NCBI GenBank assembly: GCA_046758505.1
Contig: JBHIAH010000003.1
Span: forward strand, 32,001 to 96,000
Direction of reading: 5' to 3'
DNA: 64,000 bases
Origin: Candidatus Methylomirabilales bacterium
GTDB lineage: Bacteria; Methylomirabilota; Methylomirabilia; Methylomirabilales; CSP1-5
In this document: one piece after another, positions 38,651 through 61,241 of the stretch
How positions within the stretch are numbered: position 1 is the first letter of the stretch
How the letters are laid out: the number at the start of each line of letters is the position of its first letter
Position numbers and translations under genes: made by a program
The notes under the pieces: model-generated
The model's database searches: none
Told to the model about the DNA's origin: nothing
Seen by the model: only the letters and a program-made list of their open reading frames with translations

Positions 38651-40163
<1,513 letters not shown>

Positions 40164-40186
<23 letters not shown>

Positions 40187-40383
40187 GACTTTCTCTCACG
40201 GCAGGCATCTAACCGCACATGGCTGGTGACATACACTTACCCGATTCTGCCGTCCCTCGCAAGCGGAAACGGGAACCTGTGTAGAGTGCGTGTACTTAGA
40301 GGATAAAGGAGGAAAGGACTAAAGGGAGATGCCTTAAGTGATCCATTGGTTTGTGTTCGTTGGTTTGTGTCAGGCATGTATTT
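40164..40383 (+). repeat. 220-bp direct repeat, copy 1 (comM 5' end plus upstream DNA)
   Basis: Identical to 44814-45033. Confidence 0.95.
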
Positions 40384-40432
40384 CTGGTTCGTGTCCATGG
40401 TTCGTGTGGTTCGGAGCAGATGAGCACACATG

Positions 40433-41397
40433 AGGGTCAGGTCTTGCAATCACACAAGCACACATGAGAGACACATGAGGGTCAGAGACAGATGAGGGTC
40501 AGGTCTTGCAATCACACATGCTTCCTCTTCCCCGTCTCTTGCACCCTGAGCTTCCGACTCACTGTAGCATAGTGCACCCCCAGATGTTCCGCAATCTCTC
40601 GCAGTCGATACCCGTACTCCCGATAGGCCGCTCCTATAGCCCTCTCGCCCCGTTGGCGAAAGAGCTGCGCTAAGGTTGGCCTCACCGGTCTCCACTGCAC
40701 CCGGGGGATCTCCGGCATCCTCGCCCCCCTCTTGGTGTGTCGCTGGATAAAGGTCGCACTCCCCAGATATATCTGCCCCTGCAGTTGCTGCCACGGTTGC
40801 CGGCCGAGCCCCTCGTGAACAAAGGCCCGATACCGGGTTTGGGCACCGCTCCTCCGTTGCCCAAACTGGCCCAGGACCCACGCGACCGTCAAAAATCCAG
40901 GCGCCGATGCTAACCCCGCGGTGGCTCGATAACTGCTCCACTTCCATGCGGCCACACTCCGCTTTGCCCCTGCCCGCACGGGATTCAACACGACATAGCG
41001 ACACAGCTCCAACAAGTGCGCTTGCTTTTCTACGACTATTGCCTTATAGCGCCCTTGAAACAGATGGCCCACCCGGCTGTGCCTCCGATTGAAGGCCTGG
41101 GTGTAGACCCCGTTGAGCTGGCGCATCCCCCGAGACAGGGTGGGCTTCAGGGTTTCGATCAGCAGGTGGTAGTGATTATCCATGAGGCAATAGGCATGGC
41201 AGAGCCACTCGTAGCGAGCGATCACCTCGCCAAGAATGTCGAGAAATGCCTGGCGATCCGTGGCGTCCCGGAAGATGTTTTGCCGGGCGTTCCCGCGGGC
41301 CGTGAGGTGATAGACTGCGCTCGGATATTCAATGCGGAGGGGGCGACTCATGCCAGGAGGGTACCAGGGGATCTGTAGGATTGCAAGACCTGACCCT
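40433..41397 (-). mobile_element. Y1/HUH (RAYT-like) transposase element bounded by 19-bp inverted repeats
   Basis: AGGGTCAGGTCTTGCAATC at 40433-40451 and 40495-40513; exact reverse complement at 41379-41397. Confidence 0.82.
40512..41351 (-). CDS. REP-associated-type tyrosine (Y1 HUH) transposase with C-terminal HTH
   Basis: YHLTARGN, NHYHLL, GHLFQGRY, RYVVLNP, WSSY; HTH LREIAEHLGVHYATVSR. Confidence 0.92.
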   Translation of the reverse strand: MSRPLRIEYPSAVYHLTARGNARQNIFRDATDRQAFLDILGEVIARYEWLCHAYCLMDNHYHLLIETLKPTLSRGMRQLNGVYTQAFNRRHSRVGHLFQGRYKAIVVEKQAHLLELCRYVVLNPVRAGAKRSVAAWKWSSYRATAGLASAPGFLTVAWVLGQFGQRRSGAQTRYRAFVHEGLGRQPWQQLQGQIYLGSATFIQRHTKRGARMPEIPRVQWRPVRPTLAQLFRQRGERAIGAAYREYGYRLREIAEHLGVHYATVSRKLRVQETGKRKHV

Positions 41398-41476
41398 AAA
41401 CCTTCTCTAAACCTTCTAAACCTTTGACCCTAAACCTTCCTAAACCTTCGCCTTCGCGGGGCAGGCGCGGAGGGCG

Positions 41477-42769
41477 TCAGGATCTATCGAGAAGCGGCGC
41501 GAGCAGTGCACGCAGTTGCCGGACGCGCTCCGCGGCTGCCCCCTTTGTCTGCAGCGTCGCCCGAACCACTGGCCGGGCGATCTCCCACCCATCATAGTGG
41601 GAGCAGAGCTCGAGGAGTCGGGCCGCGGCGATCTCCGGATCGGTTGCGACCAACGTCGTCGTTGCCGCGACATCGATCGCCGATGCCAGGTCCCCTCCTT
41701 TCGCGAGCACGTAGGTCAGGTTCCTGAGGGCGAAGTGGTTGTCCGGATCGGCGTTCACCACCTGCCTGAAGTGCTCCGCGGCGACTTCGTTCTCACCGCG
41801 CCGCATCAACACGTTGCCGAGGTTGTAGCGGGCGCCGGCGTGTGCGGGATCACAAGCCAACGACCTGCGATAGCAGTGTTCGGCCCTCTCCTCGTCGTCG
41901 AGCTCGGTGAAGCTCCGGCCGAGGGAGAAGAAGGCACCGGCGAGCAGCCGCGGCGGATGCAGTTCGGCGTCGTACTGCTGCAGCGTCTGCAGCGTCATTT
42001 TGATCACGTCGACTTCGATCTGGGGGAGGACGGCTCCTCGCTTCTGGCCCCGCATGAGCTCGTCGTAGCCCTCGCGGATCTCATCGAGCAGCTCGGCCGG
42101 CGGGAGCGGAGGGAGTTGCGCCTCCCGCTGAGCCTGCGTCCGGCTGCTCTCTCCCTCGTCCTTGCCACACCAGCGCTGCACATCTCGGACCAGCTCTGCT
42201 CCCTTTTCCTCGGAGAGAGCCGCGAGCCACGTCTGGACCATGAGCATCCACTGCTCGAGAATGCCCGACGTCATCTCGCCGAGAGGCGCACAGCGGACCA
42301 GTTGCCAGGTCTCGTTGAAAGCCGCCTCGGACGATTGACGATCGACGAAGACTTGCGCCGCGAGGTTCAAGACGGCCGCGTCCGCCAGATCGGCGGGGCG
42401 GGTGAAGGGAAAGCGCTGGTAGAGTCCGAGGGCGCGCGCAGTGGTCTTCGACGCGTCTGGGTGATCGGTGTTGAGCAGCAGCATACCGGCACCGAAGCAA
42501 GCGTGCGCCGCCTCGAGTATGGCCTCCCCGGGGAAGGCCTCCAGGAGCGATGCGGCTCTGAGGTAGGCTTTGATCGCCTCTTCGGTGTCGCCGGCCTGCC
42601 TGAGAAAGTGTGCGAGCGTGATGGTCAGGCGGCCCCGATCCTCGTGATCGTCTGGCTCCATCGATTCGATGAGCTCGCGTAGGACCGAGGCGCCACGAGC
42701 GGGATCTCCGCCGGCTGTAAGAGTCTCGGCCTGCTTCAGCAGGTCGCGCTGGTCGTCGTTGAGTGGCAT
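41477..42769 (-). CDS. Tetratricopeptide repeat protein
   Basis: AFFSLG, AEHCYRRSL, ARYNLGNVL, ALRNL. Confidence 0.82.
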   Translation of the reverse strand: MPLNDDQRDLLKQAETLTAGGDPARGASVLRELIESMEPDDHEDRGRLTITLAHFLRQAGDTEEAIKAYLRAASLLEAFPGEAILEAAHACFGAGMLLLNTDHPDASKTTARALGLYQRFPFTRPADLADAAVLNLAAQVFVDRQSSEAAFNETWQLVRCAPLGEMTSGILEQWMLMVQTWLAALSEEKGAELVRDVQRWCGKDEGESSRTQAQREAQLPPLPPAELLDEIREGYDELMRGQKRGAVLPQIEVDVIKMTLQTLQQYDAELHPPRLLAGAFFSLGRSFTELDDEERAEHCYRRSLACDPAHAGARYNLGNVLMRRGENEVAAEHFRQVVNADPDNHFALRNLTYVLAKGGDLASAIDVAATTTLVATDPEIAAARLLELCSHYDGWEIARPVVRATLQTKGAAAERVRQLRALLAPLLDRS

Positions 42770-42778
42770 CGCACAATG

Positions 42779-44482
42779 CTACAACGGCCCGGAGCCCGTG
42801 ACGAAGGCATCGTCATCCAGCCAGTCGGCCAGCGCGGAGGCCTGCCGGCGGACAGTTTCCTCGTACTCGTCATCCGTGGGAAAAAGGTCCGGATCGAAGG
42901 GGAGGAGAGACGGGTCGAGCACGGCGTAGGCGGGAAGGCGATTCGCATCGGCGAGGATCTGCTCGACGCACTCGAGGCGCCGCCGGATCTCTCCGGACAC
43001 CCAGCTATGGTCGCTTGTGAGGTTTTCTGCTGCGATAGGCGGCGGTACAGAGAACGCGTCGGGGGGCAGCTCCAGCCGCATTCCTGTCTTCTCTTCGAAG
43101 TCGCGGCAGAACTCGGCCGCCACCGAGCGGCGGGCGCGGCTGAGCTCCTGTGCAGCGAGCATCGCGTGCTGCCTTCGTCCCTCCAAATTCTCGGGACTAT
43201 CCATCAGCCGGCTCGCCTCGACTGCCACCGCCGCCTGCGATCGCAGCTCGTCGCCGGCTTCGCCGAGCGATGGCGAGGTTTTCAGCGACGCGGTGGGAAA
43301 GCGGGGGAGCAGACGGAAGCTCTCGCGGGCGATGAGGGCGCCCGCCGCGTCGAGGCCACGTTGGAGCCGTTTGCCGAGGGCGTCGCGTCGCTTGAAGCCT
43401 TCGATCGACAAAGCCTGCGCCGAAGCCAGATCGTCAGGCGAGCCCCAGGAGACGATCGAGAGCAGTGCCGCGACGCTGAAGAAGGAGCAACCGAGGTCGA
43501 TGCGGTCCGGGAAGAGCGCTGATTCGCTCACTCCTGTGGCGGCCTCGAGCTGCTCGCCGGCCTGGGAGGGCAACGTCAGCTCCTCGGCGACTGGAAGTTG
43601 ACTCATGTCGCTGAAACAAAGCTCCTCAAGCGGGGTCGGTATGGCCGCGCGGGCGGCGCCCGGGAGCCATTCGGGAGCGAAGGGGTTGCCATCGAAGTAG
43701 ATCGGGCACGCTAGCGCCCCACGCTGCGCGTGCGGGCGCCGAACGGTCTGGTCCATCGAGGTCAGGTCGATAATACGGAGTCCTGGCGTCCGGCTCAGGG
43801 GAGCGTCTCGCTTGGCCTCTTCGATGCCTTTCTTAAACGCGTCCCGCAGGTCCCCGGCTAGCATCGCATCGACCCACGCGTCGGCGGGGTCGGGCCGCCC
43901 GGGGTCGTCGATCTCAAGCAGCAACTCCGTTCGGCGTCGTGCCGGCCAGCGGAAAACTCGACCGGGCTCGCCTGAAGGACGGAAGGATCCGTCGACCCGC
44001 TCGTGAGTGGCGAAGAAGGCCGCTACGACGGCGTCGAAGCAGACATCGACATAGAGGGTGGGCAGCCCATAGTGCTGCGCGAGAGCGGCGGTCGCCTCGG
44101 CTTGAGTCGGCGCGAAGTGGAAAGGACCGGCGGCACCACCGATAGTGGCCGATGGGGAGGGGGCGAGGGGCTGTGGCAGGACGGGCATCTCGCTCCCGAA
44201 AAGCTGCGTTGCCGTGAAGCGACTGGTTCGCTCCATGAGGAGGCGGACGAGACTTGTGTCGAGGGAGTGAAGCCGGTTTCCGAAGAACTTCCGGTGCGTT
44301 GGCCGCAGGTAGCCAGGGAGCACGGTAGGGAACTTCGCCGCCTGGCCCCGGTAGATCCAGGCGTCGCATGGGCAGGGCTCGTCGGCCCAGGCCAGGAGCT
44401 CCTCCAACCATCCCGGGCGCTTCGTCGCGCCGCCTGCCGCATCGTCGTCAGCTCGGCGCAGGCTGCATCGGTTCATCGTCAT
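42779..44482 (-). CDS. FRG-domain protein with long C-terminal extension
   Basis: WIYRGQ, ALAQHYGLPTLYVD...AAFFA, RPHAQRG. Confidence 0.85.
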   Translation of the reverse strand: MTMNRCSLRRADDDAAGGATKRPGWLEELLAWADEPCPCDAWIYRGQAAKFPTVLPGYLRPTHRKFFGNRLHSLDTSLVRLLMERTSRFTATQLFGSEMPVLPQPLAPSPSATIGGAAGPFHFAPTQAEATAALAQHYGLPTLYVDVCFDAVVAAFFATHERVDGSFRPSGEPGRVFRWPARRRTELLLEIDDPGRPDPADAWVDAMLAGDLRDAFKKGIEEAKRDAPLSRTPGLRIIDLTSMDQTVRRPHAQRGALACPIYFDGNPFAPEWLPGAARAAIPTPLEELCFSDMSQLPVAEELTLPSQAGEQLEAATGVSESALFPDRIDLGCSFFSVAALLSIVSWGSPDDLASAQALSIEGFKRRDALGKRLQRGLDAAGALIARESFRLLPRFPTASLKTSPSLGEAGDELRSQAAVAVEASRLMDSPENLEGRRQHAMLAAQELSRARRSVAAEFCRDFEEKTGMRLELPPDAFSVPPPIAAENLTSDHSWVSGEIRRRLECVEQILADANRLPAYAVLDPSLLPFDPDLFPTDDEYEETVRRQASALADWLDDDAFVTGSGPL

Positions 44483-44813
44483 TCGCCTTGCCGAGGGAAT
44501 GCGTGTGATAATGTGTGATAAGAATTCCCTTTTGCGTGAGAGCAATCTAACGAGACAGGTGCTTGGTGTCAAGGAAAATGATACCAAAAGATACGGCGGT
44601 TAGGGGAAAAGTACCCCGAGACATGGAGGGTGGGTAGCAGGCGGGCGTTCGGAGGATTATAGGAGCCGTGAGTGGTTAGGAGCTGGGGTGTGTGGCACCG
44701 GACGGGCAAGTTTGACCCCCACCGGCTCATCGAGGCCTTGGAGGGCTTAGGAGTCATGAGGAGGAGTACGGCCAAGCCGGGGAAGGTAAAGCGTGGAGAA
44801 AGTAGGAAGGTTG

Positions 44814-45033
44814 CTACTGAGGACCTTGGCGAGCATGACTTTCTCTCACGGCAGGCATCTAACCGCACATGGCTGGTGACATACACTTACCCGATTCTGC
44901 CGTCCCTCGCAAGCGGAAACGGGAACCTGTGTAGAGTGCGTGTACTTAGAGGATAAAGGAGGAAAGGACTAAAGGGAGATGCCTTAAGTGATCCATTGGT
45001 TTGTGTTCGTTGGTTTGTGTCAGGCATGTATTT
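44814..45033 (+). repeat. 220-bp direct repeat, copy 2
   Basis: Identical to 40164-40383. Confidence 0.95.
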
Positions 45034-59718: not shown

Positions 59719-59916
59719 TAAACAATTTTTTTTCTTCAGCGGATGCCAAGGAGGGCACGGCACACCACCCCCCCTCTCGGCCTCAGGTAGCTCCCCAGCG
59801 AGAAATTGGCCTACCCCGAGGGAGGCGTCCATCTGCCCGACGCCATATTACGCGAGAGGTTGTGAAAAGGGAAGTCTTTTCGGTGCCGCATCCAGATGGA
59901 AGGAAAGACCAATAAG

Positions 59917-61009
59917 GGGACGTCCATAAAATTATAACAATCGCTTATGTCTTTAACAGTTTGACCTCCTTCATCTTGGCGATCTTCTCTCCCCGCCTGA
60001 CCGCGATACTCACCGCCGGCTGCGAGATGCCGAGCGTTCTCGCCAGAGCTGTGGCACTGGCACCGAGCTCCCGCACCGCCCAGTAGCAAAAGAGGCTCCG
60101 GGCATGTACCAGGGAACGATGCCTTCCCGGGCCATATATCTCTCGCGGCTCCATCTCGAACAGGGTGGCAACCCGCTGGGCAACTTGCTCGAGGCCATAG
60201 CCCTGGGCCTGGAGGCGATACCTGCGATCAAGTCTCTCTTCGTTCGCTGCAAGCACCTCCCGTACAAATCGACTGTCCCCCAGGATCCGTTCCTCCCCTT
60301 TGCGGCGGTCTCCCCCTTCTCGAACCTCGGTCACTTGCGACCATCCGCCGAGGCTCCGCATGAGGCTCCCACGTATCAGATCAGGTCTTTGCCCCTTTTC
60401 TATCCCCGCCTGCACATACTCTCTATACCGCCTCCGGGCCGCCGCACCCGTGCGGCCAAAATGCGCTAGAACAGTGTGAACGTCTTGCCAGTTGTTTTCC
60501 CGGTGGCCGAGAATGACACTATGGCCTGTATAAGGATACGCATCCAGATTGCCCAGACCCGCCACGATGTGCGCCCGGAGCGGATTGAGGTGGATGTAGC
60601 GCACCAGCTCCACGAGATACGCATCTTCCTGACAGAGAATGGATTTGTAGCGGTTCTGAAACAATGGGCCGTTCCGCCGGTGCCGCCGGTTATAGGTGAC
60701 CGCATACCCGGTGAGCAATCGTCTCATGACCGTGGCGAGGGGAACGACGCCGGTCCGCAGCAACAGGTGCACATGGTTGGGCAGGAAAGCCCACGCGTAG
60801 CAGCCGGTGGATGTTTCGGTTAGAATGGGGCCGAGGCGATTCTCAAACTGCTGCCGGTCAGTATCGTCCTGAAAGATCCGTTTCCGCTCGATCCCCCTGA
60901 TAATGATGTGGTGGAGAGCGCCGGGTGCGTCGATGCGGGATGTGCGTGGCATGGGACCAGTATAAGGGATGACCTGCGTTTCTGGAAATTATACTTTTAT
61001 GGACGTCCC
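59917..61009 (-). mobile_element. Second Y1/HUH transposase element bounded by 21-bp inverted repeats
   Basis: GGGACGTCCATAAAATTATAA (59917-59937) vs reverse complement of 60989-61009, one mismatch. Confidence 0.82.
59945..60952 (-). CDS. RAYT-like Y1 transposase with DnaA-C-like C-terminal domain
   Basis: HHIIIRG, NHVHLL, LFQNRY, RYIHLNP; ARSLFCYWAVRELG...ISQPAVS. Confidence 0.92.
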   Translation of the reverse strand: MPRTSRIDAPGALHHIIIRGIERKRIFQDDTDRQQFENRLGPILTETSTGCYAWAFLPNHVHLLLRTGVVPLATVMRRLLTGYAVTYNRRHRRNGPLFQNRYKSILCQEDAYLVELVRYIHLNPLRAHIVAGLGNLDAYPYTGHSVILGHRENNWQDVHTVLAHFGRTGAAARRRYREYVQAGIEKGQRPDLIRGSLMRSLGGWSQVTEVREGGDRRKGEERILGDSRFVREVLAANEERLDRRYRLQAQGYGLEQVAQRVATLFEMEPREIYGPGRHRSLVHARSLFCYWAVRELGASATALARTLGISQPAVSIAVRRGEKIAKMKEVKLLKT

Positions 61010-61024
61010 ATTTTTCCATTTTTC

Positions 61025-61241
61025 TTGTAGGTAGATCCGCCGCCCATATCCGGCCCCCGTTCATCTGAATGCAGACAAGATTCTGGAACTGGCCAAACTT
61101 GCCCTCAAAAGAATCCGGGTCGAAGAGTATTACGATTCCTGTCTCGTGCAAGAAGGCATCAGCGATGGGATATTCGACTTCGATGGTTTGGGATCCCACC
61201 GTGAGTTGCTTGCCTACGAAGGTAACGTCTCCCATTCTCAT
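61025..61241 (-). pseudogene. Putative immunity gene truncated at the transposase-element end
   Basis: MRMGDVTFVG...LFDPD...GQFQNL...WAADLPT, then runs into duplicated junction/IR; ATGA-coupled to upstream toxin tip. Confidence 0.6.

Follow-up and report, generated by a model that had tools for sequence, protein, structure and literature searches.

Background

TIRtrons and their transposases, the TIRYTs (Di Nocera et al. 2013, PMC3733652), form subgroup 2.1.2 within subclass 2.1 of the TnpA-Y1 proteins (Quentin et al. 2018, PMC6006769), and the class is also known as Group 1 of the RAYTs (Bertels et al. 2017, PMC5581495). Group 1, or subclass 2.1, is the largest RAYT-like group, with 14.9% of species (PMC6006769), and the published accounts, in the portions consulted here, leave open whether and how its members move. 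The published TIRtrons have in common with the element analysed here a protein with the motifs NH[YF]H, FQ, YxxxNP and SS and a C-terminal helix-turn-helix (HTH), terminal inverted repeats (TIRs) with a tip of the GGGGWSAS type (PMC3733652, PMC6006769), the absence of REP hairpins, and solo TIRs elsewhere in the genome. The consulted portions of the three papers (PMC3733652, PMC6006769, PMC5581495) describe TIRtrons without junction stutters, polarity, carry-over of flanking sequence, one-ended copies, population variation or a mechanism.

The TnpA-REP protein of E. coli (Ton-Hoang et al. 2012, PMC3333891; Corneloup et al. 2021, PMC8266576) belongs to the same protein class and cuts away from its binding site. 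In the published model of BIME amplification by TnpA-REP, a nick is extended and rejoined, and a further cut, made in the new strand, terminates the round (PMC3333891, Fig. 7B); the model covers local tandem amplification as well as the capture of flanking DNA. TnpA-REP works with GTAG-footed hairpins and a C|T cut, whereas the TIRtron has no hairpins and no dinucleotide preference at its constant breakpoint and, unlike TnpA-REP, occurs as gene-containing copies at unrelated loci.

Three further systems invite comparison. IS91/ISCR elements, whose one-ended transposition mobilises adjacent DNA (PMC13181058), likewise have an HUH transposase and make no target duplication; the two ends of IS91, ori and ter, are however dissimilar and its target is a tetranucleotide, whereas the TIRtron has the same TIR at both ends, stutters at both, and starts outside the repeat. 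IS200/IS605 elements have the Y1_Tnp core and the lack of target duplication in common with the TIRtron (PMC6006769), but they carry subterminal hairpins, a TnpA of about 150 aa with a Y---Q motif and clean junctions, in contrast to the TIRs, the 279-aa protein, the Y---NP motif and the re-copied junctions found here. Replitrons (PMC10288648) are also HUH transposons, and copies of Replitron-1 have "fuzzy" ends consisting of donor flank; their enzyme is of a eukaryotic Rep type, their terminal repeats are short and direct, and the text consulted describes no TIR-anchored stutter arrays.

The element type is thus already known, while the stutter was not found described in the literature searched. 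No paper describing the stutter, the polarity, the flank carry-over or the population variation came up in a search that lay outside supplements and most subscription journals, and the term "TIRYT" was returned for two works only. The "multicopy sequence" repeats of Geobacter (PMC2700814), considered as a possible precedent, are other repeats according to the main text.

The element and its transposase

The original prediction for the window, the whole 64,000-nt stretch of DNA analysed here, was of a RAYT-like HUH transposase gene flanked by a 19-bp inverted repeat. The features of the locus are collected in Table 1. Positions around a TIR are numbered from the first G of GGGTCA (0), reading from the flank into the element, and negative numbers lie outside the element.

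Table 1. Features of the TIRtron locus and its neighbourhood (window coordinates).
Feature	Position	Strand	Remarks
Host comM/YifB ATPase gene	38651..40186	-	
220-bp direct repeat, copy 1	40164..40383	+	comM/YifB 5' end and upstream; ends at second-family TIR +17
Stutter array of second TIR family	40347..40413	+	GTGTCAGGCAT, as in paralog C35
Stutter array at 3' TIR	40414..40494	+	Full outer TIR copy at 40433-40451; sequence repeats
TIR, innermost copy at the gene's 3' end	40495..40513	+	Exact repeat; overlaps stop codon
TIRYT gene, 279 aa	40512..41351	-	ORF list, profile search, alignment
TIR upstream of start codon	41379..41397	-	Exact repeat
Stutter array at 5' TIR	41398..41449	-	Jumps +1 to -9, +6 to -8, 0 to -9, +1 to -9/-10
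TPR-repeat gene and FRG-domain gene	41477..44587	-	Between 220-bp repeats
220-bp direct repeat, copy 2	44814..45033	+	Second-family TIR continues from 45017

The protein carries the motifs NHYH (residues 59-62), FQ (98-99), YVVLNP (119-124, with the catalytic Y119) and WSS (138-140), YVVLNP differing from the published consensus Y[IV]HLNP at a single position. Profile searches detected the Y1_Tnp core (1.5e-14) and a C-terminal HTH at residues 241-269 (HTH_38, E=2e-4; HTH_23, E=4e-4; both below the curated cut-off), and the tail containing this region is conserved in the protein alignment. The catalytic residues are unchanged in 22 of 22 aligned proteins and, judged by its residues, the HUH/tyrosine enzyme is intact. 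No solved structure was related to it by sequence (one chance match, E=0.32), and a single record in the plasmid collection matched at E<=1e-30.

The 19-bp repeat was found in three exact copies, on both sides of the gene as had been claimed (Table 1; the outer copy is on the + strand). Its tip, AGGGTCAG, agrees with the GGGGWSAS-type motif at 7 of 8 positions; among homologous ends, 71% have G at position -1 and 27% have A. The element ends fold weakly (-1.6 to -2.8 kcal/mol). The RAYT-like HUH assignment thus stands as far as motifs and Y1_Tnp core are concerned, with the correction that the ends are TIRs of the described TIRtron type and not hairpins, and from its motifs, length and TIRs we class the element as a TIRtron and its protein as a TIRYT of TnpA-Y1 subclass 2.1.2. 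Three other classes were rejected: REPtrons (RAYT groups 2/3), for there is no GTAG-footed hairpin among the inverted repeats, folding is weak and the RAYT family model NF047646 scores 77.8 bits, under its cut-off of 80; IS200/IS605, given the 279 aa, the Y---NP motif and TIRs in place of subterminal hairpins; and IS91/ISCR, given identical 19-bp TIRs at both ends rather than dissimilar ori and ter.

A tblastn search found 12 further loci in the genome, the gene of the window not counted. Inspected by eye, most have TIRs of their own, which fall into several sequence types; flank stutters are visible at several of the loci, including forms of 228-231 aa that lack the HTH tail. The main TIR motif occurs at 41 sites in the genome, many of them remote from any transposase match, and some of these solo ends are stuttered. 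The window itself contains a second TIRtron (59916-61025, - strand) with a 335-aa TIRYT; its TIR is of another type (GGGACGTCC), and its upstream end shows a short stutter of the flank. At four homologous loci (L012, L015, L057, L138) an internal restart was observed, consisting of a second TIR with a short flank after a truncated gene start.

Junction arrays

Outside each TIR of the window's element, the TIR edge and its flank are re-copied several times in nested units, and the left-hand array had been parsed correctly, letter for letter. The right-hand array had been read as a 9-mer repeated about five times, one copy carrying TGACC; the 9-mer, CTAAACCTT, has five copies in 45 bp (41396, 41407, 41416, 41430, 41440), four ending in C and one in T, and TGACC immediately precedes the copy at 41430. 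In the whole 2.99-Mb genome it occurs 10 times. An exact re-copy of the edge of at least 10 nt is present at 8 of 37 TIR-motif sites of the genome compared with 10 of 2020 random anchors, and the junction arrays are therefore not a product of chance.

We compared the region with its counterparts in four DNA runs (X1-X4) from one study, possibly including the source sample of the window; the comparison is between contigs and not reads, and no RNA run holding the region was listed. Both junctions are present in the contigs of all four runs, with different alleles at both. The left junction is shorter by 62 nt in X3 and X4, at an exact repeat of 27 nt, and the right junction is shorter by one 11-nt unit in X2 and X4. 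Because the four runs hold both junctions, with alleles that differ at exact repeats of 27 and about 10 nt, the arrays do not result from short-read collapse. In X1 the right junction splits into short branches (depths 14.8, 9.9 and 8.7, against 32.5), and the minor contig of depth 8.7 has gained a TIR-containing unit that joins +19 to -10 with one extra base. A minor 64-nt contig of X2 (depth 3.5, one mismatch) joins 45148 to 40423, that is, +4714 to -11. Both the X1 gain and the X2 long joint follow the breakpoint grammar of the family described below, and the shorter alleles could be passive deletions.

Across 40384-44813 there are no base differences among the contigs of the four runs. Since unit numbers differ between runs with no base change, the arrays are genuine and continue to change within a near-clonal population; the expected population variation in unit number was indeed observed. 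The arrays had also been proposed to record successive events, with which the stepwise accumulation of units agrees. A second comparison is provided by a TIRtron other than that of the window, which sits as an orthologous element upstream of comM in two genus genomes. One of its ends carries three units in G008 but lacks them in G011; units and junctions therefore change after insertion. The sequence beside the other TIR differs between these two genomes as well.

The occurrence of stutters was surveyed at 190 loci, of which 80 came from genomes, 80 from metagenomes and 30 from the genus. We extracted 306 TIR ends (303 unique), dropped 23 for short or N-containing flanks and kept 280. An end was scored as stuttered when at least 10 nt, including the three bases beside the TIR, were re-copied exactly. 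Such stutters are present at 66 of the 280 ends, compared with 3/259, 2/256, 1/248 and 3/243 for anchors placed further out in the flank, 1/280 for an anchor inside the element, and a mean of 0.2 after shuffling. The upstream and downstream sides are both affected (34/150 and 32/130 ends, respectively), and the re-copied flank sequence differs locus by locus. The suggestion that stutters are general and made of locus-specific flank with a TIR prefix is thereby confirmed (66/280 ends; control anchors, 1-3 of about 250). Stuttering at the junctions is characteristic of the family. Among five genomes with contigs up to megabase size, 12 of 72 TIR ends are stuttered; these genomes were picked for contig size, three were already known to stutter, and their long-read origin is presumed. 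One locus of the survey (L243, G043:C19:1500-16500) has eight TIR ends in 15 kb, several of them with long arrays, and no transposase match in that interval.

Breakpoints

Seventy ends were parsed into 124 jumps, of which 115 are backward. The restart is nearly constant: 101 of the 115 backward jumps restart at -15 to -5, and the median restart is -9 or -10 in each of three classes of inner break (near 0, near +6 and beyond +10). The inner breaks themselves are distributed over -2 to +2 (23 jumps), +5 to +8 (44), +12 and beyond (35) and other positions (13). The sharpest single breakpoint is +6, after the invariant GGGTCA (24 outer copies). Longer matches (at least 25 nt; 409 ends examined) follow the same pattern: among the 44 listed, 38 start within -16, and 21 of these 38 run past +25, up to +193, some of them being dispersed copies rather than tandem units. 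The start lies beyond -20 in four of the 44 listed: three belong to multi-unit arrays and the fourth is the 220-bp repeat of the window. The breakpoints are thus polar, with a constant outer edge about 10 nt outside the TIR and a variable inner edge.

Nicking at the inverted repeat with re-copying of the junction had originally been proposed; the re-copying is borne out, and the location has to be corrected, as the breakpoint that stays constant is some 10 nt away from the TIR, in the flank. In the 69 unambiguous jumps there is no dinucleotide preference at the outer (-10) break, and in 121 two-ended loci no target-site duplication was found beyond what permutation gives. Microhomology at 89 insertion-free jumps is 0, 1, 2, 3 and at least 4 nt in 53, 22, 8, 3 and 3 cases, compared with 48, 24, 11, 4 and 2 for a null of random joins, and re-copying of the polymerase slippage type was rejected because the observed microhomology does not differ from chance. 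One to three extra bases are present in 26 of the 115 jumps. The TIR tip is truncated in 13 of 274 ends that have a TIR core, with no peak at +6. In 23 arrays with at least three copies, the innermost copy differs in 4 and a middle copy in 1, and the differences lie mostly at unit starts.

Mobility and one-ended copies

Elements that are 89-99% identical occur with unrelated flanks, and the closest homologue in the genus (74%) sits at another locus. Related TIR ends within a single genome have 7-13 nt of flank in common in 10 of 41 pairs, compared with 15/991 and 52/4707 in controls; the ten pairs are not independent, since eight come from one genome and two are units within the same array. 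Between genomes, most near-identical elements have 0-5 exact flank bases in common, and flank carry-over is therefore either not obligatory or erodes. At one junction (L216), a different 8-nt flank with a TIR comes directly after the flank of one locus and GGGGTCA. The closest homologue (G006, L263:1400-1412) has an 8-nt flank identical to window positions 40414-40423 at the opposite end of its gene, either by chance or by inversion between TIRs.

In one genome (G042) a segment of 3,462 bp is duplicated with 99.94% identity. The duplicate extends from 8 nt outside the 3' TIR across the gene and the other TIR to 2.5 kb beyond, where it ends beside the TIR of a second element, and its direction is that of the X2 joint. 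As far as their sequences go, the G042 duplicate and the X2 joint fit a one-ended read-through of adjacent DNA as in IS91. The idea that the junctions act as a site of DNA capture gains indirect support from the 3.46-kb one-ended copy in G042 and the minor 4.7-kb joint in X2; the companion idea of a diversification site finds none, as nothing shows a selected diversification function. In the genome of the window, several contigs (G000 C4, C6, C9, C13, C48, C96 and C107) contain solo TIRs with patchworks of shared segments (40-250 nt, unequal in length) behind them; these arrangements look like mosaic one-ended copies.

Possible mechanism

The constant outer edge, the variable and long-tailed inner edge, the lack of microhomology and the net duplication together argue for nicking, extension and rejoining. 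On balance we think it probable that the arrays are tandem re-copies left by abortive rolling-circle rounds, with a nick about 10 nt outside the TIR, inward extension and rejoining. In such a round the protein would bind the TIR and nick the flank-to-element strand at a distance of 7-14 nt outside the TIR, showing no clear preference for a sequence and remaining on the 5' end through Tyr119. A host polymerase would extend the free 3'-OH inward, displacing the bound strand, until synthesis stopped or the strand was re-cut. The usual end points would be 0/+1 (the TIR edge), +6 (behind GGGTCA) and the vicinity of the TIR's inner end, and attack of the new 3'-OH on the phosphotyrosine would add one unit. 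The peak at +6 may represent a second cut on the new strand or a polymerase stop. Such chemistry would be that of the BIME amplification model (PMC3333891, Fig. 7B) and would accord with established HUH behaviour. Rejoining in cis would produce a stutter, and rejoining in trans would produce one-ended copies with flank and passengers. Longer synthesis, or joining of the bound end elsewhere, could likewise give a one-ended copy. Such a copy would begin some 10 nt beyond one TIR, may bear kilobases of neighbouring DNA and would often land at another TIR.

HUH nicks are usually sequence-defined, and the counterpoint to our best model is that the -10 side has no dinucleotide preference, the sharpest breakpoint being at +6 instead. 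This breakpoint, following the invariant GGGTCA, is what a sequence-specific nick would leave if it lay within the TIR on the opposite strand, mostly 5' of TGACCC and at the edge as well, and were followed by outward extension over about 10 nt and rejoining, with new units innermost. The 220-bp repeat (-203/+17) would suit outward extension, as would changes in some arrays (L146 and the left array of the window) that affect the innermost copy or are passed inward. We nevertheless regard the opposite-strand nick as unlikely: units whose ends fall in arbitrary sequence (+30 to +193, and +4714) nonetheless restart near -10, the dispersed copies start at about -8 to -13 and run inward, and truncations of the TIR tip are few (13/274) and lack a peak at +6.

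The jumps could also arise by cutting and rejoining without synthesis, if cuts at about -10 and inside the TIR let sister chromatids swap ends at a fork and yield duplications along with reciprocal deletions. TnpA-REP of E. coli recombines two cleavage sites in vitro (PMC3333891), such joining would need no microhomology, and shorter alleles do occur. Even so, this appears improbable to us, since duplications (66/280) far exceed losses of the TIR tip (13/274), although our search favours intact TIRs, and the 1-3 extra bases in 26 of 115 jumps suggest a polymerase end.

Slightly less credible still is a replication stall at a protein-bound TIR with the nascent strand slipping back, the enzyme being a mere roadblock. 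The stops at 0/+1 and +6 would suit a protein footprint, and solo TIRs distant from transposase genes stutter too; slippage, however, requires microhomology, which is at chance level, and would leave unexplained both the restart at -10 and the dispersed copies that start there. Finally, we give almost no credence to assembly artefacts, despite an N gap within the array of the closest homologue (G006) and contigs that often stop at TIRs, as arrays are present in 12/72 ends of the five long-contig genomes and in the four runs, and the units, besides being imperfect, do not reach the length of the 30-nt contig overlaps.

Returning to the model of abortive rolling-circle rounds, the junction arrays offer a nucleotide-level prediction of the cut site and strand of the enzyme, evidence that the element is active at present in the wild, in a natural population, and a way of capturing genes without target duplication. 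An HUH nick that measures distance independently of sequence would, if true, be unusual and possibly a useful tool. A broader and more tentative speculation, possible though short of probable, is that TIRtrons constitute an unrecognised active rolling-circle class in which each of the identical TIRs is an origin with a sequence-independent nick about 10 nt outside it, the arrays serve as a self-updating tandem log, and other TIRs are landing sites for cargo-bearing mosaic islands. On this rolling-circle-class reading, one of these islands would be the 4.4 kb with the TPR and FRG genes that the 220-bp repeats enclose.

Insertion locus

The flank of the element starts about 10 nt before its own first unit, directly after the second-family array, and the element appears, from this arrangement, to have been inserted into that array. 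The region upstream of comM/YifB (40187-40430; L262, L264, L265) is a recurrent landing site: across four genomes of the genus (G000, G006 and G008/G011) it is occupied by three different TIRtrons.

The 220-bp repeats bracket the TIRtron, the TPR gene and the FRG gene. The repeat is real, having double depth in the contigs of the runs; its edges, -203 to +17, have a polarity opposite to that of the family, and -203 is off the -10 rule. One base of the repeat (40342 / 44992) differs from the window in the contigs of all four runs. One genome (G005) represents an empty site in which the TPR and FRG genes are missing, and it is possible that these two genes are passengers. Within the repeat, purine-rich imperfect repeats at 40290-40330 are possibly an older, eroded stutter. 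At 44505-44730 there is a non-coding element of about 200 bp that has two other copies in the genome (C5, C6) and many in relatives; it ends near a TIR-like tip, TGACCCC, and has a short repeat at its left edge.
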